From Mobula hypostoma (taxonomy: Eukaryota): a stretch of 64,000 nt of DNA. Positions 5,114-55,130 of this stretch are shown in pieces. The notes under the pieces are model-generated. The model saw nothing but the letters and a program-made list of their open reading frames with translations, did not search any database and was not told the DNA's origin. The stretch spans positions 167,588,001 through 167,652,000 of the forward strand of contig NC_086097.1 of NCBI RefSeq assembly GCF_963921235.1, in the 5' to 3' direction. Position 1 is the first letter of the stretch; each line of letters starts with the position of its first letter. The translations under genes were made by a program, and so were the position numbers.

Positions 5114-7215
5114 CATCTCCGCCCTTAAGCACATGAACAAGTGTGTAGATAGAGTGACATCACAAAAACAAATAAAAGCTTTCCCCAATCAGAAACCATG
5201 GATGAACAGAGAACAACAGGAATTCTGCAGATGCTGGAAATTCAAGCAACATACATCAAAGTTGCTGGTGAACGCAGCAGGCCAAGCAGCATCTATAGGA
5301 AGAGGCGCAGTCGACGTTTCAGGCCGAGACCCTTCGTCAGGACCCATGAACAGAGAACAGAGAAGTTCGCCTCCTGCTCAAAGCCAGAGATTCAGCTTTC
5401 AGGTCTGGAGACCAGGAGGCTTACAGCTCAGCCAGGGCCAACCTGAGGAGGGGAATCTCTCAGGTTAAACACATATACAAACAGAGAATCGAGGAGCATT
5501 TCAACTCCTTGGACCCCCGGCACATGTGGCATGGCATACAGGTCATTACAGACTTCAAACCACCTAGTACTGTGCCCCTTTCCAGCTCTGCTTCCCTCCC
5601 TGATGAGCTCAATTACTTGTACGCTCGCTTTGACCGAGAGATCAAGGAGGTCACCCTCAAAGCGGATCTCCCACCTGGTGAACTGCCTCTCTCACTTTCC
5701 ACCTCCGATGTTTGTGCCACCCTGAGCAGGGTGAATGTACGGAAGGCAGCTGGTCCGGATGGAATACCTGGCCGTGTGCTCAGAGTCTGTGCAGGACAGT
5801 TGGCCAGGGTCTTCACGGACATTTTTAATCTGTCCCTGGCCCAGGCAGTTGTCCCCACAAGCTTCAAGATCGTCACCATCGTGCCAGTGCCGAAGCATTC
5901 CACTGCCACAGGCCTGAATGACTTCTGTCCAGTTGCACTCACCCCCATCATTGCAAAGTGCTTTAAGAGACTGTTCTATCACATCTGAAATCCTGTCTGC
6001 CCACTACCCTGGACCCCAGTCAATTTGCCTATTGCACCAACAGGTCAACAGAGGATGCTATCTCCACAGCACTTCACTCTGCCCTGACCCACTTGGGCAG
6101 CCCTTACGGCAGAATGCTGTTCATTGAATGTTCGGCATTCAATACTGTGATCCCCTCCAAGCTGATCGCCAAACTTTGCCAGCTTGGTATCAGTTCATCC
6201 CTCTGCAATTGGACCTTGAACTTTCTGACTAACAGACACCTATCAGTTAAGTTAGACAACCTCTCCTCCTCCACTCTCACCCTGAACACTGGCGTGCCTC
6301 AAAGCTGTGTGCTGAGCCCTCTTCTGTACTCCCTTTTCACCTATGACTGCATTCCTGTACATAGTTCTAACTTCATAATCAAGTTCGCAGATGACACCAC
6401 AGGGTTGGCCTGATCAGAGGGGATGACGAGACAGCCTACAGGGACAAGGTCCAGCACCTGGCTGTGTAATGTGCCGACATCAACCTGGCCCTTAACACCC
6501 AGAAGATCAAAGAGATCATTGTGGACTTCAGGCATGCTAGGAGCCACACTCACATCCCAATCTACATCAACGGAGCTGTAGTGGAGCGTGTATCAAACTT
6601 CAAATTCCTTGGTGTCCACATTTCCGAGGATCTCACCTGGTCCCTGAACTCCTCCATCCTGATCAAAAAGACGCAATAGTGCCTTTATTTCCTGCGGAGC
6701 ATCAAGAAAGCTCACCTCTGTCCCAGGATACTGATGGACTTTTACCGTTGTACCATTGAGAGCAGACTCACCAACTGCATCTCAGTGTGGTATGGCAATT
6801 GTCCCATATCGGACCGCACCCAATTGCCCACCATTGAGAACATCTACCATAAACGCTGCCTGGGCAGGGCGAAAAGCTTTATCAAAGATGCATCTCACCC
6901 TAACCATGGACTTTTTACTCTCCTCCCATCCGGTAGGTGCTACAGGAGCCTCCGCTTCCGCACCAGCAGGCACAGGAAGAGCTTCTTCCCTGAGGCTGTG
7001 ACCCTGCTGAACCTCACATCACAGCGCTAAGCAGTATTGCACCCATATTGTACTGTCTCAGTACTTTCATATTTGTATACTGTAGCACTTACTTTTTATT
7101 CGCGGTTATTTTGTAAATAACATTATTCTTTGCATTTCTGATCAGATGCTAACTGCATTTCGTTGGCTTTGTATCTGTACTCAGCACAATGACAATAAAG
7201 TTGAATCTAATCTAA
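5114..7215 (+). mobile_element. 5'-truncated Rex1/Babar-type LINE with disrupted RT
   Basis: ORF pieces: [63 protein letters not shown]. Frameshifts and stops are present. Ends AATAAAGTTGAATCTAATCTAA. Confidence 0.9.
5308..5343 (-). ncRNA. Minimal type I hammerhead ribozyme motif inside a ~130-bp PLE-derived insert (about 5216-5343)
   Basis: Minus strand reads GUC CUGACGA AGGGUCUCGGCCU GAAAC GUC GAC: conserved CUGANGA/GAAA core, stem II, palindromic ACGU stem III, GUC cleavage triplet and GUC/GAC stem I. Confidence 0.75.
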
Positions 7216-8114
7216 TGAGACTAACTTGGATGGGCATCCTGCTGAGCACGGACCAACTGGGCTGAAGGGTTTGTTTCCATGCTGTATGACACTATGACCC
7301 CACCAGTGCCCAGTTTGGTCTTCACCAGGAGCACTTGCCTCCTGGCCTCATCACAGCCTTGGTTCAAACATGGGGTGAGATGACTGCCAAGATATGCTTG
7401 CTGGTGGGAGCTTGTTGTGCCTGAATTAGCCTCAGAATTTCTTACATCAGTGACCACACTTCAAAATACTTCAGTGGCTGTAAAGTACTTTGGACGGTGA
7501 TAGCTAAATGCACCTTGTTTCAACTTCAGGTGAGATGAGTTTCCAGCCTGATGCTTTTTCAAACAATGTTCATGCCATTGATTAGCTATAGGTTTAGAAA
7601 TTCCATTATAGATACTGAATGAAGAACCCAAAACCTACTTAGACTGTCACTTGCTATTTGCTTTCACTTATAAAATCTGTGAAACAACAAATGCCAACCA
7701 TGTAGAAATACATCTTAATTTACTTTACTAAAAGAATCCGTCACATAGGCTTTAGAATTGGTAGTTAGGCTCCTGACTAGTTCCACTAGATTCTGCTATG
7801 TGCTGGGCAGCATGGAATAGATAGTGATACATATATTTTAATGAATTTTTGATTATGAACATGTTTGCTTTATTTTCACCACCAAATTTACTGAAATTTG
7901 CACTTTATTAAAACTAAAAGTTGGTGCGGCTCTTCACCGAAGTTTATTCTTAACCAGAAAAACAATTGCCAAATACTCATAACTGGAACAAAAAAATTTA
8001 AACACAAGATCCATTCAAGTCCTGAACATAAAGTGGATCCTATGGAAAACTAATCCAAATGGCACTGAAGTCCAAATCAGCAATCAGTATTTTAAAATGA
8101 GCAATTACAATGTG

Positions 8115-8211
8115 TGCAACACACACAAAATGCTAGAGGAACTCAGCAGACCGGACAGTATCTATGGAAAAGAGTACAGTTGACGTTTCGGGCTGAGACC
8201 CTTCAGCAGGA
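8115..8211 (-). mobile_element. PLE 3' terminal fragment with a mutated hammerhead core (CUGCUGA)
   Basis: Same family as 11625-11720; minus strand reads CCTGCTGAAGGGTCTCAGCCCGAAACGTCAAC. Confidence 0.7.
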
Positions 8212-8714
8212 TAAGGTGATAGTGCACAGTCTTTTTTCCAGGGTTGAAGAATCAAGAGCTAGAGCATATATATAAGTTGAAGTTAAGAGGGAAAAGATTT
8301 AGTAGGAAGTTGAGAGGCAAATTTTCAGGCACAAACGGTATTACATATGTGGAATAAGCTGCCACAGGAAGCAAGTGAGGCAGATACATTAACAAAATTT
8401 ATAAGGAACTTGTACAGGTACATGGATAGGAAAGGTTCAGAAGGTCATGGGCCAAATGCCAGGTAGTGGGACTAACTTGGATGGACATTATAATGTGAAC
8501 AAGTTTTCTCTGGTAAATCTACATCTCTCTGGTACAGACACTATATTTAAATTCATTCATATTCAATTACTTGCAGTATTTGACTTATTTTATTTGGTGA
8601 TTCATGTAATCTGTCTGTAATAAATGCAGTTGGCAGCAGAGGGCACTTTATATCACAATCAAGAGCACTGGAGAAGTAAAACCAGGTGTAAATCTTCAGG
8701 ACAGATATACAAGT

Positions 8715-11395: not shown

Positions 11396-11624
11396 TAACA
11401 TCTTCACCTTACTTGCCAGCGAGCAGGCAGGATGTAGGCAGAGCCACTAACACATTAAGTATCATTGGGGTAGAGTCAAGATATCATCTTCCTTCCAGCA
11501 ACAAGACTGAGAGTTAGTGAACCCTATCTTTCTCTTTCCTTCTGTAAGATCTGAACCACATGAAACTGCAGAGAGTTGTGGACACTGCTCAGCACATCAT
11601 GGAAAACAATCTCCCTTCCATGGA

Positions 11625-12244
11625 ACACACATCAAAGTTGCTGGTGAACGCAGCAGGCCAGGCAGCATCTCTAGGAAGAGGTACAGTCGACTTTTCAGGC
11701 CGAGACCCTTCGTCAGGACTAACTGAAGGAAGAGCTAGTAAGAGATTTGAAAGTGAGAGGGGGAGGGGGAGATCCAAAATGATAGGAGAAGACAGGAGGG
11801 GGAGGGATGGAGCCAAGAGCTGGACAGGCGATTGGCAAAAGGGATATGTGAGGATCATGGGACAGGAAGCCCAGGGAGAAGGAAAAGGGAGGGGACCCAA
11901 AGGATGAGCAAGGGGTATAGTCAGAGGGACAGAGGGAGAAAAAGGAGAGAGAGAAAAAGAATGTGTGTATATAAACAAATAACAGATGGGGTTGAGGGGG
12001 AGGTGGGGCATTAGCGGAAGTTTGAGAAGTCAATGTTCATGCCATCAGGTTGGAGGCTACCCAGATGGAATATAAGGTGTTGTTCCTCCAACCTGAGTGT
12101 GGCTTCATCTTTACAGTAGAGGAGGCCGTGGATAGACATATCAGAGTGGGAATGGGACGTGGAATTAAAATGTGTGGCCAGTGGGAGATTCTGCTTTCTC
12201 TGGCGGACAGAGCGTAGGTGTTCAGCAAAACAATCTCCCAGTCT
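11625..12244 (-). mobile_element. Penelope-like element 3' part (GIY-YIG C-terminus, 3' region, hammerhead variant at 11685-11720)
   Basis: Reverse complement of about 13398-14030. The hammerhead reads AGUC CUGACGA...GAAAA GUC GACU, with stem III mutated. Confidence 0.85.
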
Positions 12245-13202: not shown

Positions 13203-14060
13203 AGGCCACATCCTATCTCCCTCCTGGCACTTATCCTTGTAAGCGGAACAAGTGCTACACTTCCTCCCTCACTACCATTCAGCACCCCAGACAGTCCTTT
13301 CAGGTGAGGCGACACTTCAACCTGTGAGTCGGCTAGGATGATATACTGCGTCCGGTGCTCCCAATGTGGCCTTCTATATATTGGTGAGATCTGACGCAGA
13401 CTGGGAGATCATTTTACTGAACACCTACGCTCTGTCCGCCAGAGAAAGCAGGATCTCCTAGTGGCCACACATTTTAATTCCATGTCCCATTGCCATTCTG
13501 ATATGTCTATCCACGGCCTTCTCTACTGTCAAGATGAAGCCACACTCAGGTTGGAGGAACAACACCTTATATTCCATCAGGGTAGCCTCCAACCTGATGG
13601 CATGAACATTGACTTCTCAAACTTCCGCTAATGCCCCACCTCCCCCTCGTACCCCATCCATTATTTGTTTATATACACACACTCTTTTTCTCCCTCTCCT
13701 TTTTCTCCCTCTGACCCTCTCACTATACCCCTTGCCCAGCCTCTGGTTTCCCCCGCTCCCCCTTTTCTTTCTCCCTGGGCCTCCTGTCCCATGATCCTCT
13801 CATATCCCCTTTGCCAATCACCTGTCCAGCTCTTGGCTCCATCCCTCCCCCTCCTGTCTTCTCCTATCATTTTGGATCTCCCCCTCCCCCTCCCACTTTC
13901 AAATTTCTTACTAGCTCTTCCTTCAGTTAGTCCTGATGAAGGGTCTCAGCCCGAAACATCGCCTGTACTTCTTCCTAGAGATGCTGCCTGGCCTGCTGTG
14001 TTCACCAGCAACTTTTGTGTGTGTTGCTTGAAATTCCAGCATCTGCAGATTTCCTCGTGT
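13203..14060 (+). mobile_element. Penelope-like element 3' part with GIY-YIG endonuclease remnant
   Basis: Translation IYCVRCSQCGLLYIGE...EHLRSVRQ...HFNS...RLEEQHLIF...GMNIDFSNFR ends at TAA 13629-13631 and is followed by a pyrimidine-rich 3' region and a hammerhead motif. Confidence 0.88.
13929..13965 (+). ncRNA. Hammerhead ribozyme motif (diverged copy) in the PLE sense strand
   Basis: AGUC CUGAUGA A GGGU CUCA GCCC GAAAC AUC GCCU: the core is intact, stems I and III carry mismatches. Confidence 0.6.
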
Positions 14061-14901
14061 TCCCCTCCATGGACACTGTCTGCACCTCTCACGACCAATA
14101 TAATCAAAAGCTCACCCATCCTGGACTCCAGAACTTTTCTCTCCCCTCCCATTGGACAGAAGATACTAGAATTTGAAAGCACATGCCACCAGCCTCAAAG
14201 CCAGTTTCTACTCCATTATTGTAGGAGTACTGAATGACCTCTTGTACAAAAAGGTGGACTTTACAATCTACCTCATCATGGCCTTGCACCTTATTGTCCT
14301 CCTGCACTGCATGTTCTCTGTAACTATAACCTTATACCCTATGATAACAGCAACAAGAACAATTCTTTAAAGATAGTCTAATGTGAAACAGCATTAATGC
14401 TGGAATCACAAAATAAAATGACCAGGGCCAAACACACGTTCCAATATCTAGGTACCTAATGTGGATCTGGTGTTTTGACTTGTCCTTCAGTTTTCAGATT
14501 GAAATGCTTGGACTGACAAAGGCATGGTGAAGGAAAGGAGACTTGGGTCAAAACAGCCTCCCAAGGGAGATCTTTTTTTCTTTTTCATTCCATTGTCACT
14601 TTCTGCAATAAAATGACATGGTAGCTTGTAAGATACTTTGTGTATTTAATGATGCAGAATCATTTGGTAACATTTATTTGGTTGTACAACTTAAGCCTGA
14701 GAACTCAGGGTCAATTGTTTCACAAAACTTTTAAATTGGTGAAATCAGTATTTCCAGTGATTACAGTACATTTATTTGCCACTTTCTACCATAAAACATA
14801 TTGTAAACTTCTTCATCACTTTTCTTCTTCAGGATTATGACAGGATTCACTTTCTAAGACCCACTTGCAATCTGAACAATTTGTAATTCACAAATGTACA
14901 G

Positions 14902-15240
14902 AAACACACACAAAATGCTGAATGAACTCAACAGGCCAGGCAGCATCTATGGAAAGGAATAGAATCAATGTTTCGGGCCGAGATCCTTCATCCGGACTGG
15001 AAAGGAAGGGGAAGAAGCCAGAATAAGAAGCTGAGAGGAGGAGAAGGAATACAAACTAGAAGGTAATAGGTAAGGCCAGGTGAGGGGGAAGGTAGGTGAA
15101 GGGGGAGGAATATGAAGTGAGAAACTGGGAGGTGATAGGTGAAAAAGGTAAATGGCTGAAGAAGAATGAATTCAATAGGAGACGAGAGAGTACCATAGGA
15201 GAAAGGGAAGGAGAGAGAGAGGTGAAAGGAGAAGGAAAGT
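14902..15240 (-). mobile_element. Older PLE-derived 3' fragment
   Basis: CACACAAAATGCTG...CAGCATCTATGGA terminus, a degenerate hammerhead at 14963-14998 and a purine-rich tract. Confidence 0.65.
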
Positions 15241-15321
15241 TCGTTTTTTACACAATTTGATTTTCAGACATCATCAAATTGTTAAAGATGACTCTTGATG
15301 TTGGATTTCAAGCAACACACA

Positions 15322-15463
15322 TAAAAATTGCTGGTGAACTCAGCAGGCCAGGCAGCATCTATAAGAAGAGGTACAGTCGACGTTTCAGGTCTCGACCGGA
15401 AACGTCGACTGTACCTCTTCCTATAGGTGCTGCCTGGCCTGCTGCGTTCACCAGCAATTTTTA
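15322..15463. repeat. Inverted repeat (65-bp arms, 12-nt loop) made of two PLE termini
   Basis: 15322-15386 is the reverse complement of 15399-15463 with about 3 mismatches. Confidence 0.9.
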
Positions 15464-15538
15464 AGTGTTCAATGAGAGCTGGTTAGGTGAGATACTTTGT
15501 TGTGAAGCTCATAACACAACTTTCACCCAAATACTATA

Positions 15539-18308
15539 CACTGGGCAACAATGATTTTGCTTCCTGAATACTTTTGGTGTGTCTAATGGATTTGGGGATA
15601 CTGATCATGAAAATTGCCATGATATTTCCCTATCACAGACCATTTTTTTTTTGAAATTGCCTATATTTGTTATTTCAGCTCATAATTCAGGTCAATTAAA
15701 ATGTTGCCCACAATGTAAGCTGAAAAGTTTTCTATGCTACCATTAATAGACCATATTACTCAACTTTCATCTAAATGGTTTCCTTTATATTTAACTTTGA
15801 TTGGTCGTATTAATGCAGTTAAGATTTTTTTTTGCCAAAATTTTTATATGTGTTTCAGGCATTACCAATTTTTGTTCCAAAATCTTTCTTTGATAAAGTT
15901 GACTCTAAAATTTCTTCATTTATTTGGCAGAATAAAAATCCGAGACTGGGTAAAATACATTTACAGAAAGCTAAGAGAGATGGAGGTTTAGCATTACCTA
16001 ACTTTAGATTCTATTATTGGGCAATTAATAAATTAATATTCGACATATGAAATTTTGGTTACTTGACCAGGATATACTATCTATTCCTAAATGGGTAGCA
16101 TTGGAACTACAATCTGTTCAGGGCTATACACTTGGCTCTATTTTAGGTTCCTCTCTCCCTTTTGATTCGAAACGCCTTAAGCAGGTGTCTAACCCGATAG
16201 TTAAATATGCTTTGCGTATTTGGTTTCAATTCAGAAAATTTTTTGATCTTAATCAATTCGGGTTAGCGATTCCTATTTTAGGTAACATATTTTTTCCTCC
16301 CTCTTTTACGGATCGCGCTTTTCAAACTTGGAAGACTAAGGGTATTTTACGGTTTTTGGATTTATTTTTAGATGGTTCCCTTATGTCTTTTGAACAACTA
16401 TCTAACAAATATAATTTATCAAGAATACATTTTTTTAGATATTTGCAAGTTAGAAATTTCCTAAGTACTATACTTTCTTCCTTTCCAATGCTTCCTCCTA
16501 CATATATTTTAGATTCGATAATTAACCTTAATCCATGTCAGAAAGGTGCATCGGCTATGATTTATAATATTATTATGAAACTTAGGAAAGCTCCATTTGA
16601 TAAGATTAGGGTAGATTGGGAACAGGAATTGGGGCTTACCATTTCTGTGGATGATTGGGGGCAGATTTTACAATTAGTTAATACTTCCTCTATTTGCGCT
16701 AAACATTCCCTAATTCAATTTAAAGTTGTTCATAGAGCACATATGTCCAAAGATAAGTTAGCGCGTTTTTACTTGCATATTAATCCTTTTTGTGATAGAT
16801 GTTCGGGGCAGATAGCCTCTTTAACTCATATGTTTTGGTCTTGCCCTACTTTGGAAACTTTTTGGAGAGATATTTTTAATATTATTTCTGAGGTATTAAA
16901 TATAGATATCTCTCCTCACCCTATTACTGCTATCTTTGGACTACCTAAAATTTCTAGTAATCTTTCCCCTTCAGCCCGTAGAATGATTGCATTTCTTACT
17001 TTAATGGCGAAAAGATGTATTTTACAACATTGGAAAGAGCTTAATGCTCCAACTACCTTTTTTTGGTTCTCTCAGACGATATTATGTTTGAATCTGGAGA
17101 AAATTAGAAGTAACCTTTATGATTCTTCATTTAAATTTGAACAGATTTGGGGATCTTTTATTCGATATTTTCATTTAATGTAATATATACCCTTCTTGTT
17201 TTTTTTTCACTGTTTTTAATGGAGGTCGAGATTGAGGACGTGATTTTAAGTTTAACTCTGTTTGGTTTCAAGTTAGCCCATTGCTTTGCTTTGCTTTTAG
17301 TTAGTTGCACGGTGGGTTTTTTTTGGGGGGTTTTTTTTCTTTTTTTCTATCGATATATATATAAAATTAGTATACTATTATGTTACCTTGGTATGTTATG
17401 TTTAAATTACATTGTAGTATTTTTTTTGCATTAATATCTTCTGTAATTTTATTATATTCTAACAGTGTATTAGTGTCTATATGGCTTACCTTTTTGTATA
17501 CTTATTCAATAAAAAGATTTAAAAAGAAAAGAAAAGTTTTCTATCTTGTCCAGGCATGCCTGGGCATGCTTAGGCAGGTGGATGCTGCATGGCAGGACAG
17601 ATTTTAGAGAGGCTATAAATTTCCATGAAGGATTTTGATATTTGAGATAGATGTTTCCAAGAATAACTGATGCCAAGAATAAGGAAGGCATTTTTGTTGG
17701 TCCACAAATCAAACAGGTCATCAATGACAGGCAATTTGAAGAACTTCGTGAGATCAGTGAAAGTCACATGGAAGGCAGTCAAGGATGCTGTTGAAAATTT
17801 TTTTGGCAACTACAGAGCAACGAACTACATGCAGCTGGTTGACAATATGTTTCAACATGCAATGCCATGATGTGCAACATGTCACTAAAGATTCATTTGC
17901 TGCATTCCCATTTAGACTTCTTCATTGCAAATCTTGGTGCTGTCAGTGACGAGCATGGTGAAAGGCTTCACCAGGACATTGCGGTTATGGAAGAATGGAA
18001 TAAGGGCAACTGGAATCAATCAATGTTGGCCGATTGTTGTTGGACACTTAATTAAGAAGTCTCAGACACTGGGTACAAATGGAAATCAGCAACAAAATAT
18101 TTTTAGCTTTGTTGAACTATTGCAAAGGATCAGCACTGTTAGGCAATTAAACACATTACATTCAATAAAAGTTAATTTCTTGTTTCTCAGAAATTCCTAT
18201 GTCATACAAGTAGTCTGAAATTATATTGGTGTTCAGGTTCAAGTGGTCTATCAGAAACAAAAATAATTCTGAGGAAGCAACACTTTCAAAAAACTTTGTT
18301 GTCCAATG
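15539..18308 (+). mobile_element. Internally deleted Chapaev3-like (CMC) DNA transposon, interrupted by an L1-type LINE
   Basis: Terminal inverted repeats (TIRs) CACTGGGCAACAA / TTGTTGTCCAATG, 3-bp TSD ATA, and a transposase C-terminal remnant at about 17600-18055 (EGIFVGPQI, MSLKIHLLHSHLDFF, AVSDEHGERLHQDI, MLADCCWTL). Family name is from motif recall. Confidence 0.75.
15736..17530 (+). mobile_element. 5'-truncated L1/Tx1-clade LINE
   Basis: LTLIGRINAVK, PKFLYVFQALP, GGLALPNFRFYYWA, and a 378-aa ORF (16047-17183) with the zinc knuckle CDRC...HMFWSC. AATAAA and an A-rich tail follow; perfect 14-bp TSD GAAAAGTTTTCTAT (15722-15735 / 17531-17544). Confidence 0.92.
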
Positions 18309-24734: not shown

Positions 24735-25096
24735 TGATGCTGTCCAAGTTGCATGCTATCTTGGACAACGTCTCCCATCCACTACATAATGTACTGGTTG
24801 GGCACAGGAGTACATTCAGCCAGTGACTCATTCCACCGAGATGCAACACTGAGCGTCATAGGAAATCATTCTTGCCTGTGGCCATCAAACTTTACAACTC
24901 CTCCCTTGGAGGGTCAGACACCCTGAGCCAATAGGCTGGTCCTGGACCTATTTCCTGGCATAATTTACATATTATTATTTAACTAATTATGGTTTTTATA
25001 TTGCTATATATCTATACTCTGTTCTTGGTTGGTGCAACTGTAACGAAACCCAATTTCCCTCGGGATCAATAAAGTATGACTATGACTATGACTATG
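24735..25096 (+). mobile_element. Short 3' copy of the Rex1-type family at 1-842
   Basis: Near-identical to about 495-842, including the (TATGAC)n tail. Confidence 0.88.
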
Positions 25097-25893
25097 TTAT
25101 CATTTCGGAGGACCTGTCCTTGGCCCAGCATGTAAGTACAATTACAAAGAAAGCACGGCAACACCTCTACTTCCTCAGAAGTTTGCGAAGATTCAGCATG
25201 ACATCTAAAACTTTGACAAAATTCTGTAAATGTATGGTGGAGAGTATATTGACTGATTGCATCACAGCCGGGTATGGAAACACTAAAATTCAAAGTACAT
25301 TTATTAACAAAGTATAAAGAGTACGTCTTGGTATAATGTCCTTGAATGGAAAATCCTACAAGAAGTAGTGGATATGGCCCAGTACATCACAGGTAAAGCC
25401 CTCCCCACTACTGAGCACATCTACGTGGACCACTGTCACAGGAAAGCAGTAGCCATCATCAAGAGCCCCCACCACCTAGGCCATGCTTTCTTCTCACTGC
25501 TGCTACGAGGAAGAAGGTACAGGAGCCTCAGGAGCCTCAGGACCCACACCATCAAAGTTGAGGAATAGTTATTATCCCTCAACCATCAGGCTCTTGAACC
25601 GGTGGTGATAACTTCACTCGCCCCATCATTGAACAGTTCCCACAATCTATGGACTCATTTTCAAAGACTCTTCATCTCATGTTCCGATATTTATTGCCTT
25701 TTTTTTTCTTTTGTATTTGCACAGTTTATTGTCGTTTGCACATTGGTTATTTGTCAGTCCTGTTGGGTATGGTCTTCCACTGGTTCTATTATGTTACTTG
25801 GATTTACTGCATATGCCCGCAAGGAAATGAATTTCAATGTTGTATATGGTGACATATACGGTATATACTTTGATAATAAATTTAATTTGAACT
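25097..25893 (+). mobile_element. Rex1/Babar-type LINE 3' fragment
   Basis: KKARQHLYFLRSLRRF, CMVESILTDCIT, IIKSPHHLGHAFFSLL and an (ACTTTG)-like tail. Confidence 0.75.
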
Positions 25894-26719
25894 TTGGACA
25901 AGTACCTGAACCACCAAAGCTGGTAGATGGGATAGGTAAAAATGGGTTCTTAATGGTTGACATAGACATGGTAGGTGCATGTGCTTGTTTCTGTATTGTG
26001 TGACTCTAAGCCTTGATGGAAGTGGTAAAGTTGAAATCTTCCCATTCCTGAAATGTGCTGCTCTCACCAAAAACCAGTGCCTAACCTGCTGGGTATGTGC
26101 AGTATTCCAGATCTCCAGCATCTGTGGTATCTGAAATCAGTTCCTGGGTGAGCAAGCCAAAAGCCTGCTGGTCTTGATCCTGGAGGTTGACTCTCACTAT
26201 GATAGCTGGGGGATTTAAACAAGTAATTTCCAAAGGGGTGCTAATTGGTAGATTAATTGGCAACTGTAAATTAACCCTGGCGTGGGTAGGTGACAGGGTA
26301 TCAGTGGAAAGCTGATGGACATCTGAGAAAGAATACATTACAGTGGAATAATCTGGGAAGGGAGATAGTTGAGAATGCAAGAGAATGCAGATGCTGGAAA
26401 CTTGAGCAGCAAACAAAATCCTGGAGAATTCAACAGGTTAGGAAGTATCTGTGGAGGGAAATAGACAGTCACCATTCTAAGTCGAGATCTTTAATCTCAA
26501 CAGAGTGGTTGCCTAGTCTGTGCTTGGCCTCACTGACATAGAGGAGGACTCATCAAGACCAAGGAGAGCGGTGCATATGAATGCCTACCTCCCCTGGAAA
26601 GGAGCAGAGATCCTGGGAATCGGCAGAAATGCCTGCTTAAGGTTAAATCAGGTCAATCTTCATCTTTTTCTCTGGTGGAGCAAACCTGAGTGTTCGACTG
26701 CCCCTCTCCTGCCCCTAAT

Positions 26720-32000: not shown

Positions 32001-35000
32001 TAATTAGTCAGCACTTTTGGTGAGGCCCAAAAGTGGGCTTAAAGAAGGCTGGCCTACTTATCTGGAGTTATCCTTTGAAATCCCACCACAGAGGAAGGGG
32101 AATATAAATTGTAATAACGAAGGCTGGTCTCAAGAAGATGGACTACAGGATTGTTTTTATTTTTTCAAAATCCATTTTTGAATTCCTCAGAGAAAGAAAT
32201 GCAGCATTCTAGGCCAGTTTGGCCTATGTATGACTCCAGATCCATGGTACTGTAGTTGTCTACTGAAATGAACCAACACGTCACTTTTACGAGCCTCTTT
32301 GATAAGCAAATGAATATACAGCCAATCAAAGCTCAAAGTAAACTTATATATGTGTCACCATATACTGCCCTGAGATTCATTTTCTTGCAGACGTTCACAG
32401 TTGACCAAAGAAATCCAGGAGAATCAAGGAAAAACTACATGCAAACTAAGACTGACAAACAACCACTGTACAAAAGTAGACAACCTGTGCAAAAGCAAAG
32501 ACATAAGACATAATAATAAATTAATGCAGAGAACATGAGTTGTAGAGTCCTTGAAAGTCCATAGGCTGTGGAATCAGTTCATGAATTGAGTTGAGTAAAT
32601 GGAGGGATATGGACCACCTGAAGAGGCAAAGGAGGTTGGGTGAGTAATTATTTTGGTAAAACATCATTGACAGACGAGCTTATTCTGTGCTGTATTAGTT
32701 GCTCAGTTCAGAGGTAGTCATATTAGTAAATTGGTTTATCATTGCCACGTTTATTTTGCCTGCCATCCATACAGATTATTTCGTCACCTCAGTACATTGA
32801 GGTAATACACAGGAAAAGCAATAACAGAACGTGGAATATGAGAAAATGCAGTGCCGGCAGACGATAAGTTGCAAGGCTATAGTGCGATGGGCTTTTGATC
32901 TCAGAATCTATCTTAATGTGCAAGAGGGCCAGTTAATAGTCTTGTAATAGCAGAATAAAAGCTGTCCTTGAGCCTGGCTATACGTGCTTTCAGGCTTCTG
33001 TACCTTCTGCCTGTTGGGAGGGGTGAGAAGAGCGAACATCCGGGTGGGTGGGATCTTTGATTATGCTGGCTGCTTTACCAAGGCAGCGGGAAGTGTAGAC
33101 AGAGTCCCTGGAAGGGAGGTACGATCTCATGATGTGCTGAGCTGTGTCCATAAACCCTCTGCAGTCTCAGCTAGAGCAGTTGCCATACCAAACCATGATG
33201 TTGCTACGATTTTAAGAATTGTTAAGTGCCCACCGGGTCATACTAAATTTCTTTTGCCTCCTAGAAAAACTTGAGACACTAGTGTACTTTCTAGGCCGTG
33301 GTGCCCACATGGTTTGTCCAGGACAGGCCATTGGTGATGTTCAAATAGATAGGGATGGGTACTAACTGTCGGGCCATGCCAGTGATGCCACTAAATGTGC
33401 ATGTATGAAGAAAATTAGTTTCCCTTCTTTTATCTAACATGTTGGTAATTTCATCCAAAAAAGTAGACTGTAGACAAACTCTACCTCTCCTTCACCAATC
33501 CTCTCTGACTGTCCTTCATAAGTAGACATTTGCCTTAATGTTCATTTACTCTCTGACAGACTTTAGTAATTTGCTCAGAACTGGCCTTGAATGTGAAGGT
33601 TTCTATGATGTTATTGTGTTGCTTATGGTACTGATTGCCACTAGGTTCTGAGAGACAGTGTGGGAGAGTGACCTGGCTTGTTAGTTATCTGAGGAATGAT
33701 TTAATAAAGACATATTTAGCTTCTGAACAATTTGTGTAATATGCACATTTAAAATAGAGCAAATAAACCCAGAATAACTCTTGCAGACCACCGGAGGTAC
33801 AGTCAGGAGAGCAGGTTAAAGGTATGTTCAAACATAATCTGAGAAATGGAAGCAAGAGCAACATGCACAAAGTGCTGGAGCAGGTCAGACAGCATTGATG
33901 GAGGGGAGAGAATGCTGGATGCTTTGGACCAAGAGCCTTCCTCAAGAATGGGGGGGGGTAAAAAGGGCAGAAGCCAGGATAAGAGGTTGGGAGAAGCACA
34001 AGCTGGTGAGTGAACCTGTATCCAGGTGAGGGCTAGAAGTAGGAACGTGATATCTGTACCTGCCTGTGCTTTCCCTTCCTTCTTATCAATCCCTGACACC
34101 TGTCCCACTGTTCATTATGGTTGATCCTGATCCTCCTCCTGTCTCCAAAACCTTGCCAAATCCAGCCTTGAATATACTCGATGCTGGTCCATCCCCATTC
34201 CTCTCTTGGTTGGTTACAGCCTTCTGAACAAACATTATATTCCTCAATTCAGTCCTAGACGGCCAACCCCTTAGCCTGAGTTGTGCCCCTTTGTTTTAGG
34301 CTGTCCTGCATGATAAGAATACTTTCCCCACCTACCCTGTCAGTCCTTCGCTGAGTCAATGCGTCAGGATGTGACAGAGGGTGCTCTGTTTGAATGAGAG
34401 GAGGTATGCTTTGGAGTTCAGAAGAATGAGGGGCTATTGTATCAAAACGTATAACATCCCGATGGTACATGACAAGGTAGATGTTGAAATAATATCACAT
34501 ACGGAAAATCGTAAACGGGGGCACATTTAAAACTGAGGTACATGGAAATTCCTTCTCACAGAAAGGAGTGGATTTTTAGAATTTGCTGCTCCAGAGACTT
34601 ATGCTGGCTAGCTCACGAGAAGTATTTAAAGTGAAGATGGATAAATCTTTGAAAGGGGTTTGTGGCCTATGGGGTTGCAGCACAGGGAATGAGTTGAAGC
34701 CTGGAGACGATCAGCCATGAGCCGATCGAATGGCAGCACAGCGTTGAGGAACCTTGTGATCTACTCCTGCTTTTAGTTCCTTGTATGCAGCGTGGTTAAG
34801 AATTTTTGAGTAAAACTTGTAGTACCAAAGTTGAATTGATGGATGGAAGGCCATTTGGCACAGGGACTGCTTTCAGACACTGATTCCTCTCTCCTTTCTA
34901 TTGTGTGGGACTAGTTTAACACACCTTTACTGGCCACTAATTGAAGCTCGAGGCCTATTATACCCTTTCAACAACTTGTTGTAATAATTTGTGTGATAAA

Positions 35001-43299: not shown

Positions 43300-44040
43300 C
43301 AACTTGCTATCAAGGTATGTATGTATCACCAAATACTGTCCTGAGAATCAGTTTCTTGTAGGCATTCACAGTGGAATCAGTGGAAAAACTACACCCAAAT
43401 AAAGATGACAAGCAACCAATGTACAAAAGAAGATAATCTGTGCAAATAGCAATAATAATACTGAGACCACAAGCTATGGAATCCTTGAATGGAGTCAGTA
43501 GGTTGCATTCAGTGATGTGGTGAGTGAAGTTATCCACGCTGGTTCAGGAGCCTGGTGGCTGAAGGATAATAACTGTTCCTGAGGCTCCTGTACGTCCTTC
43601 CTGATGGCCTCAGCAAGAAGAGAGTATGTCCTGGATGATGGGGGTCCTTCATGGATACTGATACCTTATGACAATGCATTTTGTAAATGTGTTCAGTGAT
43701 GGGGAGGGCTTTGTCTGTGATGAACTGACTTTGTCTGTTACGTTTTTGTAGCCTTTTTTTTCCTGTGCTTGTGCAGTGATGGTTCCATACCAGGCCGTGA
43801 CATCACCAGACAGGATACTCTGCATTGTGCATCTATAGATGTTTGCTAAAGTTTTAGATGATGTGCCGAAAGTGCGCAAGCGTCTAAGAAAGTAAAGGCA
43901 CTACCGTGCTTCCATTGAAATGGCACTTATGTGCTGGTTCCAGGACAGATCCTCTGATATTATAATGGCCAGGAATTTAAAGTTACTGACCCTCTCCATC
44001 TCAAACCCCCTAATGAGCACTGGCTCATGGATCCCAGATT
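43300..44040 (-). mobile_element. Rex1/Babar-type LINE 3' fragment
   Basis: Minus ORF RTFGTSSKTLANIYRCTMQSILSGDVTAWYG. Confidence 0.75.
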
Positions 44041-44804
44041 TCTTCAGCTTAGTAAAGCAGCCTAATGTGTCACTTGTTAAATAGTTGGTGACGTCACAAG
44101 TGAATCTGTAGCTTGAAACTAATGTTTTGGTTCTGTGTTATAGCAGTTCTTGTATCGGGAATTCATCAATCACAACTCACTGCCAACGTAAAAATTACTA
44201 ATAAAAATTCACTTTCATAAAGCCATAACATAGGAGCAGAATCAATCCATTCAGCTTATTGGTTGTCCCGCCATTCAAACATGGCAGACTTTTTTCTCAC
44301 AAAGAAGAGAAAATCTGCAGATGCAGGAAAGCTGAGCAACACGCACAAAATGATGGAGGAACTCAGCAGCTCAGGCAGCATCTATGAAAAAGAGTACAGT
44401 GGACACTTTAGGCCAAAACCTTTCGACAGGATATTTTTTTTTCTCAGTCGCATTCTCCTACTATATCCCTTAACTTCCTTTCCAATCAAACTTTTCAATC
44501 TTTGCCTTAGAATCCATAGCTCTCTATGGGAATGAATTCACCGTCCTCAAGCTGAAGAAAGACCTCCTCATCTCAGTTTAAGAAGGACACCCATTTATTC
44601 TGAGGCTGTGCCTGTGGATCCTAAACTATCCTAATAATAAATGATCCTTTCCACATCCACTCTAGACAGGCCTTTCAGTATTCTCTAAGTTTCAGTGAGA
44701 TTTCAACCTAATTCTTTCCCACCCCCCCCCCCCAACACACACATACACCCTCGTCCTTGTGAATTTTATCAAGTACGGGATCGGAGAAACTTGTCATTCG
44801 TCAT

Positions 44805-45155: not shown

Positions 45156-46999
45156 TTAAGCTTTTCACTCCTGGGGTCATTCCTGAGCCTCCTGGACCTT
45201 CTCCAGAACCAGCACATCATTCCGTGGATCTGGAGTAGTGTTCAAGGACCACTCACAAATCTGGAGGCAGAGGGGAGGAAGCTTTTGAAATTTCTGTATT
45301 GTGAATTGTAGGTCTTGGGGCTCCTGCGTCACCTCCCTGTTGGTAATAGTGAGAAGAGGGCAGGTCCCAGACGGTGAGCTCCCTACATGATGGATGCTAC
45401 TTGCTTGAGTCACTGCGTTTTGAAGGTGTCCTTGATGGTGTGGAGGGTTGTGCCCATGATGCAGCAAGCTGAGTCTACACCCCTTTGTGATCCTGTGCAT
45501 TGGAGTCTCAGTACCAGCCAGTGATGCAACCGGTCAGAATGGTCTCCACTGTACATGTATAGAAATGTAAAAATCCTCAAACTTGTGATGAAGTAGAGCC
45601 TCTGCATGCCTTCTTTGTGATGGCATCCCTGCGTGGGTTCGGAATAGGTCTTCTGAAATGTTCATGAAATGGTTGGGCAGTTGGAGAGGCAAAGTTTTCA
45701 CTCTGTAACATTGTTTGTCTGTGTTGGGCTCGGGTCTCTGATACAACTGAAGCCAACTGGTCAGCTTTTCACTCACTGACCAATATCCATGGCAATTGTT
45801 GCTGCTGAAGTAATTTGTATTATTCATCAGCCAAAATCCTCCAGTTGCTGCTAAATTATGCAAAAGCTAAATGCTGTGGGTATTGGAAATCTGAAAGAAA
45901 ACCCAGAAAATCCTTTAAGTGTTCTGCAGGTCAGTTAACATTGGTCGAGAGAGTTCATGATTGAGTCTATCTCCAGTTACTCAAGGAAGCAATTATTGGA
46001 TAGGCCATTGAATAGTAACTAAACTGTTTCATATAATATGCTTTTCAAAAAAGGGTTTCCTCATTTGGATGTTTGTGCTTGTCAAAATATCTGTTTTTTT
46101 GTTATAAGTTCCTCTTCATTCCTGTGGGTTTTGGATGTGATGGAGGAGGAGCGGGACAAAGGTGGAATGTAAGCTGTATGGTATTCTGGTGGAGAATTGG
46201 CCATGGCTATGTTTCTCATATGACTGAGGAGGGAAGAGTAAGGGAGATCTGACCTGGGGAACAGTTTGGAACAGGGAATTATTACCAACTTGCCAAAAAA
46301 TAAAATCAGAATTATATAACCAGAGAGAGTAAGAGAACTGAAAACTGCTGGAGATTTCTTCCTGGTATAAAGTTGTTGGGAGGGGGAGGGAGAGAGAATG
46401 AACAAATAAATAAATAAATAAATAAATATGATTTGGCCCATCAGATTAGTGCTAGCTCATTGAAAGAGGTATCCACTTCATCCCATTCATCTCTAATGCT
46501 GCATTTCATTTCACTTTTCCAACCATTTCTCCAATTCCCTGTTGAAGCGTAATGCTCAGTCCATTTGGGTAACAAATAATCATTCTCAGCATTTGTTGAA
46601 GGCAGACCTCCTCACTTTCCTCTTGCCCAAATGTTTTGGAATTTAAAAGGGTTCTTAGATCATATTCTTTCCCCACAACCAGTGGAACCATTTGCTTCTG
46701 CCTCCCTTTTTTTTAAAGCAGAATGTCTACTGAACTAGTCCCATTTGCCTGTATTTGGCCCATATCCATCTAACTCCTTCCCAGCCAAACTCTTTGTTAA
46801 TGCTGTAACTGTTCCCAACTTTATCTGCCAGCTTTTTTTCCATATACTCCCCACCCTCTGTGTGGGGGGAAAAGTTTCCACCTCGGGTCCCTTTTAAATC
46901 TTTTCCCTCTCCCATTAAACTAATTTTGGATTCTTTTACCCCGGGGAAAAGACTTTGGCTATTCACCTTATCTATGCCCCTTATGATTTCAGAACCAGA

Positions 47000-48575
47000 A
47001 TTGGAGTCAGAATCAGGTTTAATATCACTGGTATATAGTATGTTGTTTTGAGCAGCAGTACAATGCAATACATAATAAAATGCTATAAATTACAATAAGA
47101 AATATATGTTTAAATAAAATTAGATAAGTAGAGCGAGAAAGTAAAAGAAAAGTGATGCAGTGTAATGAGTTACTTGTCCATCCAGAAATCTGATGGCAGC
47201 GGGAAAGAAGCTATTCCTGAAATATTGTGTGTGTCTTCAGCCTCCTGTACCTCTTCCCTGATGGTAGTAATGAGAAGAGCGCATGCCCTGGCTGATGGGG
47301 GCCCTTAATATTGTGTGTGTCTTCAGCCTCCTGTACCTCTTCCCTGATGGTAGCAATGAGAAGAGCGCATGCCCTGGCTGATGGGGGCCTTTAATATTGT
47401 GTGTGTCTTCAGCCTCCTGTACCTTTTCCCTGATGGTAGCAATGAGAAGAGCGCATGCCCTGGCTGATGGGGGCCCTTAATATTGGATGCTGCCTTTTTG
47501 AGACATTACTTTTTGAAGGTGTCCTTGGTGCTGGAGCCCATAATAGACCTGGCTGAGATTGTAAATTTTTGCAGCTTTTTCCAGCCCTGTGCAGTGGCCC
47601 CTCCATGCCAGACGATGATGTAATCAGAAGGATTGCTCTCCGTGGTACATTTGTAGACATTTGTGAGAGTCTTTGGTGATATACCAAGTTACCTCAAACT
47701 CCCAATGAAATGTAGCCACCTTTGTAATTGCATCAGTATGTTGGGCCCAGCATAGAGTTTCAGAGATGCTGAAACCCAGAAACTTTAAACTGTTCACCCT
47801 TTCTACTGCTGATCCCTCAATAAGGACTGTATGTTCCCTCGACTTTCCCCTCCTAAAGTCCACAATCAATTGCTTGGTCTTACTTTGTTGAGTACAAGGT
47901 TGTTGTTTTGACACCACTCAACCAGCTGTTCTATCTCAATCACTACGCCTCCTCCTCTCCATCTGAAATTCTGCCAACAATAGTTATATCATTGGCAAAT
48001 TTATAGATTGTGTATGAGCTATGCCTAACCACACAGTCGTGGGTGTAGAGAGAATAGAACAGTGGGCTAAGCACACACCCTTGAGTTGCGGCAGTGTTGA
48101 TTGTCAGCGAGGTGGAGATGTTATTTCTGATCCATACTGTTTGTGGTCTTTCGATGAGGAAGTCAAGGAGCCAGTTGCAGAGGGAAGTAGAGAAGACCAG
48201 GCTTTGGATCTTATTGGTTAACACTGAGGATATGATCGTGTTTGAATGCTGAGCTGCAACCATTAAACAGCAGCCTGATAAAGGTATTACTATTGTCCAA
48301 GAGATCCAAGTGGAAAGCCAGTGAGGTTGTATCTACTATAGACCTAGTGTGTCGATAGGAAAATTGCATCAGGTCCAGGTCCTTGCTTAGGCAGGAGTTG
48401 ATTCTGCCCATAACTAATCTCTCAAAGCACTTCATCACAGTAGATGTGAGTGCCACTGGGTGATGGCCTTTGAGGCAGCTAGCCCTGCTCTTCTTGGGCA
48501 CTGCTATAATTGTCACTCTTTTGAAGTAGGTGGGAGCCCCCAACTGCAGCATTGCGAGATTAAAGAATTTATAAA
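47000..48575 (-). mobile_element. Rex1/Babar-type LINE with degenerate RT
   Basis: Minus ORFs PVALTSTVMKCFERLV, QGCVLSPLFYSLYTHDC, KFANDITIVG, KTKQLIVDFRR. Confidence 0.88.
47221..47485. repeat. Tandem triplication of an 86-bp unit
   Basis: Units start at 47221, 47307 and 47393; AATATTG recurs at each junction and at 47479. Confidence 0.95.
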
Positions 48576-49772
48576 TCTGTAGGGTCACTCCTCACCCTCC
48601 TATCATCCAGGGAAAAAAGATATTCTGAGCCCATCCAGTCTCTCGTTATAACTCAAGTTTTCCAATCCCAAGTAACATCCTTGTGAATCCTTTTACTTCA
48701 ATGAGGAGTGAATGAGCTAGTAGAAAAGCTGCTCATGCGAGTTTATAACGAGTGGCTACACATAAAAGGTTCTCAGTGAGATTGACAGGGTAAAAGCTGA
48801 CAGGATATTTTGCTTGTTGGTGTCGTAGATCACGGAGACATCATTTCAAATTAAGGGTCACCGATTTAATATGGAGATAACGAATTTCTTCAGAGTGTTG
48901 GCCGTTCCCTTTCCTACAAATTCACAGATCCCTGTGTCCGTCCTTTATGCCTTTTTTCTTGGAGTCCCTCTCCTATCCCTGTAGGATTATGTAATCCAGA
49001 AAGATGTAGAACCTGTACATTGAGGTTTTTGGACTGAAGGGCAATCAAGGTTTATGAAACAGGCAGTGACTTAGAGTTGAGGTTAAGGTAAGATCAACCC
49101 TGATTTTGTGGAAAAGCCTCAATGGAAAATGAGGCTCTTTTCCTTCAATAAATAGGGATCAGCAGATGCTGGGAATCTGTGGGGGGGGGGGAATGCTGAA
49201 AACACTCAATAATTCACATTGCATTAGTGGAAAGAGAAAGGGTTAACCTTTTGGGTCAAAGACCCTTAGTCAGAACTCTCCTTTTTGTTCTGTACCTGGG
49301 GTTGAAAGAAGCAGGCCAAGTTTTCTGTCAGCATTGAGATGGGCTGAATGGCTTACTTGTGCTTGATCAAAGTCCCTCAGTTTGAATAAGTACAGACTCA
49401 GACCAAAAATTTCCTGTGTGGCCAGGTGTTGTGGCAAAACTTACTGGGTTACTGGTTTTATGTTGGTCGCTTCTAAGTAACTGTATACAATGTCTTTGAC
49501 AATTTTTTGCACGTACACAGATGCTACTAGACCAGTTGAGTTCCTCCAGCAAATTGTTCGTTTGCTCTAGGTTCCTGCATCTTTTGATGGTCAGGTGCAG
49601 CTTTTTGATCAATGGCTTCAACAACCACTAGGTGGTGCAGTGATATATATTTTAATTCCAGAGCAATGATACCTAGTTTTTGAATTGGAATCAGGTTTTA
49701 TTTTTACTGACGTATGTCATGAAATTTGTTCACAGCAATACAATGCAATACATAAAGGTTACAATAAGGAAT

Positions 49773-50380: not shown

Positions 50381-51050
50381 ATGTAGCCAGCCATTTCTAC
50401 TCTTTTTTTAAAAAAAAAATAATTATTATAACATAGTACCCATTCGACTGACTTTTTCCCCTTGCGTGAAAAAGAACCTTGTCACACTGCTTTTTAACTG
50501 GACCAATGTTTTCTTTTTTTAAAAAAAACTCGAATGCCTCACTGTACTTCAACAGGTAGGTAGACATCTTGAGTTTGTTTAAAACTTCTTTGTTGCCATT
50601 GTTATGTTTTCCTCATTTGCTCATCACCTCCCTCTAGTTTCCCCCTCCTTCCCTTTCTTCCATGGTTCACTGTCCTCTCCTATTACGTTCCTCCTTCTGC
50701 AGCCCATTACCTCTTCTACTTGTCCTCTCCCAACTGCTTACTTCATCCTTCCTCCCCCCACCTATATTCTCACATTTGATTGCTCGGGGTATAATTAGCT
50801 GATGTATACTGAGCGAATTGAACAGTATTTTGAAGCAAATGAAATAGCCAATGATAAGCAAGTGCCAGTTTTGCTGAATGCACAGGGGTTAAAAGGCATA
50901 CTGTTTGCTTAGGAATTTAACTGCTCCAACCAAGCCTGCTGAAATGAGCTTTGCTGATACTGTGAAAGTAACGCAGAAATATTTAGAAACAAAACCATTG
51001 TTGATTGCAAAACACTTTAGGTTTCTGAAGCAAAATTAAAAGGAAATGGA

Positions 51051-51313
51051 AGCAACATACATCAAAGTTGCTGGTGAACGCAGCAGGCCAGGCAGCATCT
51101 CTAGGAAGAGGTGCAGTCGACGTTTCAGGCCGAGACCCTTCGTCAGGACTAACTGAAGGAAGAGTGAATAGGAGATTTGAGTAAGAGAGGTCTCGGCCTG
51201 AAACGTCGACTGCACCTCTTCCTAGAGATGCTGCCTGGCCTGCTGCGTTCACCAGCAACTTTGATGTGTGTTGCTTGAATTTCCAGCATCTGCAGAATTC
51301 CTGTTGTTTGCGT
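51051..51313. mobile_element. Palindromic PLE-terminus insertion
   Basis: 88-bp inverted arms 51050-51137 / 51189-51276 (1 mismatch) and a 15-bp TSD TTAAAAGGAAATGGA (51036-51050 / 51314-51328). Confidence 0.9.
51115..51150 (-). ncRNA. Minimal type I hammerhead ribozyme motif (intact)
   Basis: AGUC CUGACGA AGGGUCUCGGCCU GAAAC GUC GACU; 4-bp stem I AGUC/GACU. Confidence 0.8.
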
Positions 51314-51995
51314 TTAAAAGGAAATGGAGCCTGTTTTAGCATGTGTGGCTGAACTGAAGTTGTCTCAGCATTGTCAGTTCAGTAAAGGGGATAATAACGC
51401 ACTGAGATGTTGTTTAGTTTGTGGAATCTTAGAAGAAAACATTCAAGAAGTGGCTCCTAACTGCAGCAAAAAGAGCAGATGAAATAGCTATGTCAATGGA
51501 AACAGCAGACAGAGACACCATTGAGTTGTAGTCAGGAATGAAGGTGAGCGTGAACAAAATTGCAAAGTCTAAACAGAAACCGGCCTGGCCAAACAAATTG
51601 TATTACCATTGTGGCAGGGGCTCCTATACACCAGACCCAAGCAGGTTTAAAGATGGAACTTGCAGAAAATGGCACGAAGTGGGACAAAAGCATGTCAGGC
51701 AGACCAAAATAAATGGACTATGCAGGAAAGAGAAAAAGATAAAATACCAAAAAGCCAAGTTGCACTAATCTGCATGCTGTTGATGAAAAGTCTGATAATG
51801 ATAAGAATGACACAGGACTGAGTAGCCTTAAGATTTACAGTGTGAAAACTGACAATAGACAAGCAATATGGCTCACACCAGAAGTGAGCAGTAAATTAAT
51901 TAAAATGGAATTGGCTGTTTCAGTCATTCCACAAGATGAGTATGAACAGCATTTCAAAGATACTGAACTGAAGCCTGCAGATATCCAACTAAGGA

Positions 51996-53980: not shown

Positions 53981-54236
53981 AAGGTTATTGCATGAACTTC
54001 AAGTGGGAGACAAAATGCTGTTTTTAAAAGTAAATGTACTTAACATCTCCCAGGTGGATTAATGGAAGGCCAAAAAGAAAGGAGTCAATGGAGATACAAA
54101 AAGAGCGAACTCATCAGATGATGTTGTGGATGAGGAAACCAAGAGGAGAGATCAGATTATAAAGGGGGCAATAGAAGGATTAATAAGAGAATACTCCATG
54201 AACTAAATCCCAAGCTCAAGGAAAGAGAAGAAAGGT

Positions 54237-55130
54237 AAACACAAAGTCTGCAGGTGCTGCAAAACCAAAGCAACACACACAAAATGCTGGAAGAATTCAG
54301 TAGGTCAGGCAGTATCTATGGAAATGAATAAACAGTCAACGTTTCAGGCCACGACCCTTCTTCAGGTTTGAAATGAAAGGGGAAAGGTGACAGAATAAAA
54401 AGGTGGGGAAAGGGAAGGAGGACTAGCTAGAGGGTGATGGATGAAACCAGGTGGGTTCAGAAGATAAAGGGGTGGAGAAAAAGGAATCTGAGAGGAGAGT
54501 GGACCATAAGAGAAAGGGAAGGAGGAGGGGACCCAGGAGTGATTAGCCAGTGAGAAGAGGTAAAAGGTCAGAGTGGGAAATAGATGAGGGGAGGGGTGGG
54601 GGAGGGAAAAGTAAAATTTTATCGGAAGGAGAAATCAATATTCATGCAATTAGGTTGGAGACTACCGAGATAGAATATAAGGTGTTGCTCCTCCACCCTG
54701 AGCGTGGCCTCATCTTGGCAGAGAGGACCGACGTCAGAATGGGAATCAGAATTAAAAAGTTTGGTCACCGGGAAGTTCCGCTTTTGGTAGATAGAGCGGA
54801 GGTGCTTGAGAAATCGGTCCCCCAATTTACAATAGGTCTCACCAGTGTAATGGAGGCCACAGCGGGAGCGCCGGATACAACAGACGACCCAAGCAGATTC
54901 TCAGGTGAAGTGTTGCCTCACCTGGAAGGACTGCTTGGGGCTCTGAATGGAGGTGAGGGAGGAGGTGAACTGGTTGGTGTAACACTTGGGCCTCTTGCAG
55001 GAGCATTAGTGGGAGGGGTGAATGGATATGGGAACTGCAGAGGGAGAAATCCCTACAGAAAGCAGTGGGGGCAAGGGGAGGAGGTAACGATATGTTTAGT
55101 GGTGGGATCCCTTTGGAGATGGCAGAAGTC
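54237..55130 (-). mobile_element. Penelope-like element 3' part (second subfamily) with a hammerhead variant at 54334-54366
   Basis: Minus ORF GDRFLKHLRSI...DEATLRVEEQHLIFYLGSLQPNCMNIDFS; hammerhead CUGAAGA AGGGUCGUGGCCU GAAAC GUU GACU. Confidence 0.85.

Follow-up and report, generated by a model that had tools for sequence, protein, structure and literature searches.

Minimal hammerhead motifs at the 3' ends of a probable Neptune-type Penelope-like element in Mobula hypostoma

Results

The 64,000-nucleotide stretch of the Mobula hypostoma genome analysed here (NCBI RefSeq assembly GCF_963921235.1, contig NC_086097.1, positions 167,588,001 to 167,652,000; hereafter the window, in whose own coordinates all positions are given) contains a dispersed repeat family that very probably represents the 3' ends of a Penelope-like element (PLE) and that carries a hammerhead ribozyme-like motif. 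The motif lies at 5308-5343(-), 8178-8211(-), 11685-11720(-), 13929-13965(+), 14963-14998(-), 51115-51150(-) and 54334-54366(-). An earlier note made from the letters alone had listed these seven sites, and we recovered all seven at those positions and on those strands; self-comparison of the window indicated that the motifs are part of a longer repeat, each of them running into a common downstream tail of 65-100 nt. The list was real but incomplete, as nine further copies or arms align with it, namely 44431(-), 51189(+), 15397(-) and 15388(+) and the older 61323(+), 33940(-), 26492(-), 49277(-) and 49496(+). We examined these 16 copies and arms, i.e. the seven named motifs, 44431(-), three half-motif arms and five old copies, leaving out a weak match at 45869-45934 (E 0.003). 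Because all seven motifs descend from one element, they constitute one case and not independent cases. A strand bias of the family was considered and rejected (9 of 12 single-armed copies on the minus strand, p = 0.15).

The 3' end of the repeat is laid out as a broken GIY-YIG frame, a pyrimidine-rich untranslated region (UTR) of 250-300 nt, a minimal type I hammerhead and the tail. The proposed link between the motif and a GIY-YIG frame ending about 300 nt before it on the same strand was borne out in all three copies that keep the endonuclease frame, the stop lying 297, 290 and 249 nt before the motif, and all three GIY-YIG-type frames are broken. The translated fragment 13320-13628, with X at the stop, matches 12 proteins among 83 candidates (best E 2.5e-50), the three best matches, named from rays, being 78-85% identical, and tblastn with the homologue P0003 against the window aligned 161 aa at 78% (E 4e-67). 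The matched proteins contain a reverse transcriptase (RT) motif, a CX5CxxC linker and a GIY-YIG domain, the last found by Pfam in P0003 (E 4.6e-4) and P0012 (E 1.5e-6). A Zn-finger-like linker marks the Neptune and Nematis elements and has the form CX2-5CxxC in Neptune (Craig et al., 2021, PMC8557442). This CX2-5CxxC linker is complete in the homologues P0003, P0004, P0005 and P0009, and in the window copy at 13223-13318 its last Cys has been lost by deletion. The abundance of the family is apparent from four public sequencing runs, in each of which 9,494-81,291 contigs aligned to the 857-bp remnant at 13206-14062; all 24 runs consulted consist of assembled contigs whose ends and strand are unreadable and which give no evidence on expression or cleavage.

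The same linker-endonuclease layout extends beyond the ray-named matches to the relatives P0011-P0013, which are 42% identical and come from contigs of 0.5-1.6 Mb in ENA assemblies. The ray protein P0006, annotated as divergent protein kinase domain 1C isoform, contains the endonuclease of this PLE at 73% identity, and in P0008 an RT of the long interspersed nuclear element (LINE) type is joined to it; faulty gene models or exonisation of the element probably account for both.

A minimal type I descriptor (stem I of at least 3 bp, CUGANGA, stem II of at least 3 bp, GAAA, N:N', UH) matched exactly twice in the window, at 5309-5344(-) and 51114-51151(-), whereas 100 simulated windows of matched dinucleotide content gave a mean of 0.01 matches and never two or more (0/100). 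The first match has a 4-bp stem I, a bulged A, a 4-bp stem II and an ACGU stem III; the second has a 5-bp stem I, and its 3' two-thirds are predicted to pair with an inverted arm. Both are solo copies, 45.8 kb apart, and their predicted cuts at 5313/5312 and 51119/51118 coincide with those put forward in the earlier note. The description of the two as fully canonical needs qualifying: both have G.U instead of the consensus G-C at 10.1/11.1, and with no loop 3 they are minimal and not canonical hammerheads. The wider claim, that PLE ends carry a minimal type I hammerhead whose stem III is the palindrome ACGU, fits the published consensus (Cervera and De la Pena, 2014, PMC4209133). An Rfam scan of the window gave 12 matches at E <= 10, none of them a hammerhead; the Rfam hammerhead models presumably require a real stem III. 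The top Rfam matches, miRNA models on the palindrome at 15348-15437, were rejected. Pattern scans for further copies found none in viral contigs and none in metagenome contigs (two patterns), and the covariation and end counts given below are therefore drawn solely from copies in the window.

Damage to the core, stem I or stem III makes five of the seven named copies fail the descriptor; all 11 core letters are intact in five, and the full motif is complete in two. In the copy at 11720, position 15.2 is A and the ACGU palindrome is lost, and in that at 13929, position 16.2 is A and stem I is down to 1 bp. At 14998 U4 is altered; the 54366 copy has an intact core and a stem I of only 1 bp, its 5' strand being altered; and the 8211 copy is altered at A6 and 1.1, its first bases possibly being those of the flanking LINE, whose paralogue at 4855-5112 is nearly identical there. 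The palindromic ACGU stem III is kept in four of the seven (5343, 8211, 51150 and 54366) and lost at 11720, 13929 and 14998. Across eight aligned copies, pairing amounts to 97% in stem II and 71% in stem I, the bulged A (the unpaired base between 9 and 10.1) is always present (8/8), and the 10.1/11.1 pair is G.U in four, G-C in three and A-U in one. The stem I break at 13962 is particular to the 13929 copy, since 97-99% of contig depth at that position in the four runs has the pairing base. Folding z-scores of the seven motifs (-0.8 to +0.9) were uninformative.

As a separate observation, N7 and 16.2 shift jointly from C/G to U/A in two copies (13937/13958 and its 14998 counterpart), preserving an inactive pairing of core to cut site. 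This apparent covariation (C-G in four and U-A in two of eight copies) does not exceed shuffles (197/500, two-sided cells); both positions are CpG sites, so the change may be decay, and we keep it only as a lead.

The copies differ in how far they reach upstream. Solo pieces are found at 5212-5343(-), a 132-bp insertion of hammerhead and long tail inside a LINE reverse-transcriptase fragment (RVT_1 5967-6410), at 44302-44431(-), a decayed hammerhead (3 of 11 core letters altered) with long tail, and at 8116-8211(-), a hammerhead remnant with short tail whose 5' bases perhaps belong to the flanking LINE. The first two lie within target-site duplications (TSDs), of 10 bp at 44302-44431, and begin 3 and 2 nt, respectively, before C3; the flanks of 5212-5343 share a 14-letter word, and the start of 8211 is no more than about 10 nt from the same point. 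Longer, 5'-truncated PLE copies occur at 11624-12244(-), with the last 77 endonuclease codons (stop ending at 12011), UTR, hammerhead 11685-11720 and short tail, and at 13206-14062(+), the best-kept of the long remnants, with linker and GIY-YIG fragments at 13223-13631 (interrupted by a frameshift and an in-frame stop), UTR, hammerhead 13929-13965 and long tail. An older subfamily is represented at 14900-15233(-) by UTR, hammerhead 14963-14998 and short tail, and at 54238-55120(-) by a 5'-truncated copy with linker and GIY-YIG fragments (stop ending at 54619), UTR, hammerhead 54334-54366 and long tail. An old decayed copy lies at 61323-61431(+), with similar ones at 26386-26492(-), 33850-34039(-), 49150-49277(-) and 49496-49573(+). 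PLE UTR and endonuclease-end fragments with neither hammerhead nor tail were also seen at 50612-50777(+) and 55496-55600(-).

Two insertions have inverted arms. At 51036-51328, within a 15-bp TSD (51036-51050, 51314-51328), the minus arm 51051-51188 is a full hammerhead with short tail and the plus arm 51189-51313 half a hammerhead with long tail, joined head to head and differing at 1 of 88 bases. At 15297-15468, two arms of half a hammerhead plus tail fold back on each other via GG/CC of stem II, CUGANGA being present in neither, and no clear TSD was found around them. The latter fold-back also gives false Rfam miRNA matches (mir-5681, mir-2131), below the gathering score.

Counted from C3, with the cut site at +28, the 3' ends fall into two groups, +92 to +96 (8116, 11624, 14900, 51050) and +127 to +132 (5212, 14062, 44302, 54238, 51312), so that tails end about 65 or about 100 nt beyond the predicted cut, and the groups lie about 35 nt apart. 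This gap matches the optional PLE tail of 30-40 bp and a pair of RT starts; in the anole element, reverse transcription begins internally at two sites, and the tail equals their spacing (Frangieh et al., 2024, PMC11167929). In two runs, loose contig ends behind 14061 stay in agreement over roughly five further letters before diverging into AT-rich sequence, which hints weakly at the same long 3' end. At the other side, none of the 16 copies begins at the cut site, which argues that the reverse-transcription templates were uncut; in the anole system, uncut RNA is the template and hammerhead mutants are without effect on insertion in vitro (Frangieh et al., 2024). Directly before TCC, the upstream UTR closes with a pyrimidine tract and CAG or TAG. 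Both inverted arms (51189, 15388) end at G10.2 of stem II, and among the opposite-strand contig joints listed, one of three (13942) falls on that same base. The clustering of copy ends at stems I and II is a small lead.

As monomers of 37-38 nt, the intact motifs are predicted to pair G5-G8 with CGUC at the cut (P 0.88-0.99), and in 100-600 nt of genomic context the predicted stem I probability is at most 0.06. In a minus-strand read-through transcript, the 51114 motif is predicted to lie inside a hairpin of -201 kcal/mol formed with its own inverted arm (88 bp). The double hammerhead has a predicted energy of -11.5 kcal/mol; two inactive monomers come to -22.0 and an inactive dimer to -30.3 kcal/mol. 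Because there is no loop 3, self-cleavage is to be expected only as a double hammerhead via the ACGU palindrome or with a protein. The single minimal hammerhead of Schistosoma does not cleave and its dimers cleave weakly (Cervera and De la Pena, 2014), and the anole PLE hammerhead cleaves only after addition of the PLE protein (Frangieh et al., 2024). The proposal that these are self-cleaving RNAs is thus unsupported for the genomic copies, of which five of the seven named are broken and two are intact with no tandem partner and are predicted to misfold; cleavage by the genomic copies is unlikely unless a partner or protein is present.

A Pfam scan of 54 of the 78 open reading frames (ORFs) of at least 100 aa gave RT or RT-associated domains, two ALKBH8_N matches and one sub-threshold MATH match (E 0.0047), the last rejected as a host gene on its reading frame. 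The ALKBH8_N matches, above the Pfam cut-off at 6680-7027(+) and 24964-25314(+), seem to be the C-termini of LINEs, not host genes, since 6680-7027(+) follows an RT fragment. A LINE-like stretch of 258 bp is present twice, at 4855-5112 and 8209-8465 (94.6% identity, 3.3 kb apart), one of the two abutting the 8211 PLE remnant. At 16032-17183(+), in AT-rich surroundings, an open frame of 383 codons with zf-RVT (E 1.1e-6) corresponds to the C-terminal part of LINE ORF2, and at 47221-47485 about three units of 86 bp form a tandem repeat (98% identity) that has scattered relatives near 43582 and 45334.

Discussion

We propose that the repeats are the 3' ends of a very abundant Neptune-type PLE with at least two subfamilies, that the motif acts as a conditional ribozyme in the parent's tandem transcript and that the solo copies are inert by-products of 5'-truncated insertion; taken as a whole, we consider this explanation very likely. 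Several observations weigh against it. The window contains no complete or tandem element and no PLE RT core, the tblastn matches beginning at residue 176 of P0003, and because that core is missing the Neptune clade was assigned by the linker of the homologues and not by a tree. In the window fragments themselves, the Pfam GIY-YIG model stays below cut-off (E 0.057 for one, no match for the other). The core differs less than the tail in the three older-subfamily copies, though only marginally so (4/33 vs 74/260, p = 0.058), and is no better kept than the tail in the four oldest copies (p = 0.87). Covariation in stems I and II, which the earlier note had offered as a test, is absent from the window: none of nine pairs shows a two-sided compensatory change in the eight aligned copies, and the covariation score does not exceed that of shuffles (343/500), in a test that has little power because the copies are few and closely related and two have flank-derived 5' bases. 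The word 'inactive', as used here of folds, is moreover a prediction of models that omit the tertiary core, proteins and folding order.

The anatomy, boundaries and homology of the copies and the integrity of their motifs come from the window itself; the steps of the mechanism that we envisage, above all internal initiation and the dependence on a dimer or a protein, would carry over from published PLEs. The terminal repeat (pLTR) of the parent element would carry a minimal type I hammerhead that cuts after GUC as a dimer or with the assistance of protein. The RT-GIY-YIG protein would nick AT-rich DNA, and reverse transcription would initiate within the RNA, 3' of the ribozyme, at either of two sites that lie about 35 nt from each other. 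The RT would then copy back through the uncut hammerhead, mostly stopping early, and such early stops would give pieces of solo hammerhead and tail, at times with a second, inverted arm in one TSD. Inserted copies would decay, most of them then being unable to cleave. We infer that the family in the window behaves like the published PLEs and that its genomic copies are inert.

It is nevertheless conceivable that the intact solo copies at 5309 and 51114 are working ribozymes which cut read-through host or element transcripts, in trans via ACGU or aided by protein. Both pass the descriptor with a full core, the family is very abundant in the four public runs, a nested double-hammerhead fold can be drawn, and the PLE hammerhead of the anole does cleave with PLE protein (Frangieh et al., 2024). 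The double hammerhead is, however, predicted to be less stable than either inactive form (tertiary terms excluded), stem I is improbable in context and 51114 is buried in its hairpin, the single Schistosoma motif is inert with feeble dimers (Cervera and De la Pena, 2014), and no host exon was found in the 54 of 78 long ORFs scanned, all of which makes this possibility quite unlikely in our view. A chance resemblance, with the sequence retained solely for protein binding or as a promoter signal of the element, is countered by the fit of all 11 core letters, the two stems, bulge and palindrome to a consensus of 40 animal species, in the same position of the element; we regard such a resemblance as extremely improbable, despite the lack of an Rfam hammerhead at E <= 10, the lack of covariation and the unimpaired in vitro insertion of the anole PLE with hammerhead mutants (Frangieh et al., 2024). 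A non-LTR retrozyme or SINE family that has borrowed a PLE end is very unlikely as well: PLE pLTRs are the reported source of retrozymes, which are said to occur in one sampled chondrichthyan (Li et al., 2026, bioRxiv preprint 10.64898/2026.07.22.740005), but self-comparison of the window gave no head-to-tail motif units, the copies continue into endonuclease coding sequence with ragged 5' ends, and the hammerhead is minimal.

The ends of the copies raise the question whether the solo pieces of about 130 nt could be a defined product and not random truncations: internal priming in the tail would run off at an RNA 5' end at stem I (a transcription start or a splice acceptor), and stem II would halt the enzyme or make it switch templates, giving rise to the inverted arms. 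The starts of 5343, 44431 and 8211 at or close to C3 are as this idea would have them, as are the pyrimidine tract and CAG/TAG before TCC and the stops of both inverted arms and the 13942 joint at G10.2. The numbers are tiny, however, flank microhomology (TC, TCC, CC) is present at every junction, and six copies reach well upstream (51150, 33940, 14998, 11720, 13929 and 54366). The likeness to initiator and splice-acceptor consensus patterns is putative. In the literature, the 3' end of the Penelope intron of D. virilis maps to helix I (Cervera and De la Pena, 2014), and both promoter and intron have been placed in the pLTR (PMC2377424). On balance, we find a defined product rather unlikely. 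Its bolder form, in which the hammerhead would mark cDNA ends regardless of cutting, with RNA start or splicing at stem I, a 'ribozyme plus tail' run-off of about 130 nt, a template switch at stem II and a GACG/CGUC (or GAUG/CAUY) core-triplet pairing that locks the monomer until a protein or partner arrives, is more doubtful still; if true, the run-off product would account for the abundance of solo minimal hammerheads in animal genomes.

Like the minimal hammerheads of metazoan PLEs (Cervera and De la Pena, 2014), the motif has CUGANGA-H, a stem II started by G, GAAA, a palindromic CG with no loop 3, UH and a short stem I; it shares their U-rich upstream flank and their place in the pLTR after the endonuclease, as well as the predominance of solo copies of truncated elements and the presence of another, oppositely oriented motif within 100-700 bp. 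Its 4-bp stem II differs from the 7-8 bp of Schistosoma, a length that is variable in Fig. S3 of that work, and the G.U at 10.1/11.1 of the young subfamily recurs in some of the published rows. Minimal hammerheads have been reported in Neptune, Poseidon and Xena elements of fishes, together with thousands of solo copies per genome, and the Fig. S3 rows include neither sharks nor rays nor chimaeras (Cervera and De la Pena, 2014).

With the Poseidon element PAc of Anolis carolinensis (Frangieh et al., 2024), the family shares a hammerhead followed by two RT starts that define an optional tail, and we count the AT-rich targets, the cutting and extension of both strands and the uncut RNA template as shared. 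PAc, however, is a member of the Penelope/Poseidon clade with an ORF that begins in stem II, whereas the homologues of the window family have a Neptune-type linker and its intact motifs have no ATG in the core. Neptune-clade PLEs (Craig et al., 2021) likewise have a C-terminal GIY-YIG, a CX2-5CxxC linker, 5' truncation, an adjacent inverted truncated copy and a tail of 30-40 bp at one end; unlike them, the window has no full element, RT or partial tandem with direct pLTRs, and Nematis also has a linker motif. Non-LTR retrozymes resemble the family in their type I hammerhead from PLE pLTRs and their presence in one chondrichthyan, and differ in forming tandem arrays with a hammerhead per unit, the copies in the window being dispersed, solo or inverted (Li et al., 2026).

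The minimal hammerhead near PLE ends was already described in 2014, and what is added here is a ray-type Neptune family, with no new biology. Our literature search found no paper devoted to a PLE hammerhead family of rays, which is no proof that none exists; the supplements of the 2026 preprint may cover the family. The role of PLE hammerheads is still open (Craig et al., 2021; Frangieh et al., 2024), and a high-copy, recently active family such as this one records where the RT starts, stops and switches relative to the ribozyme.

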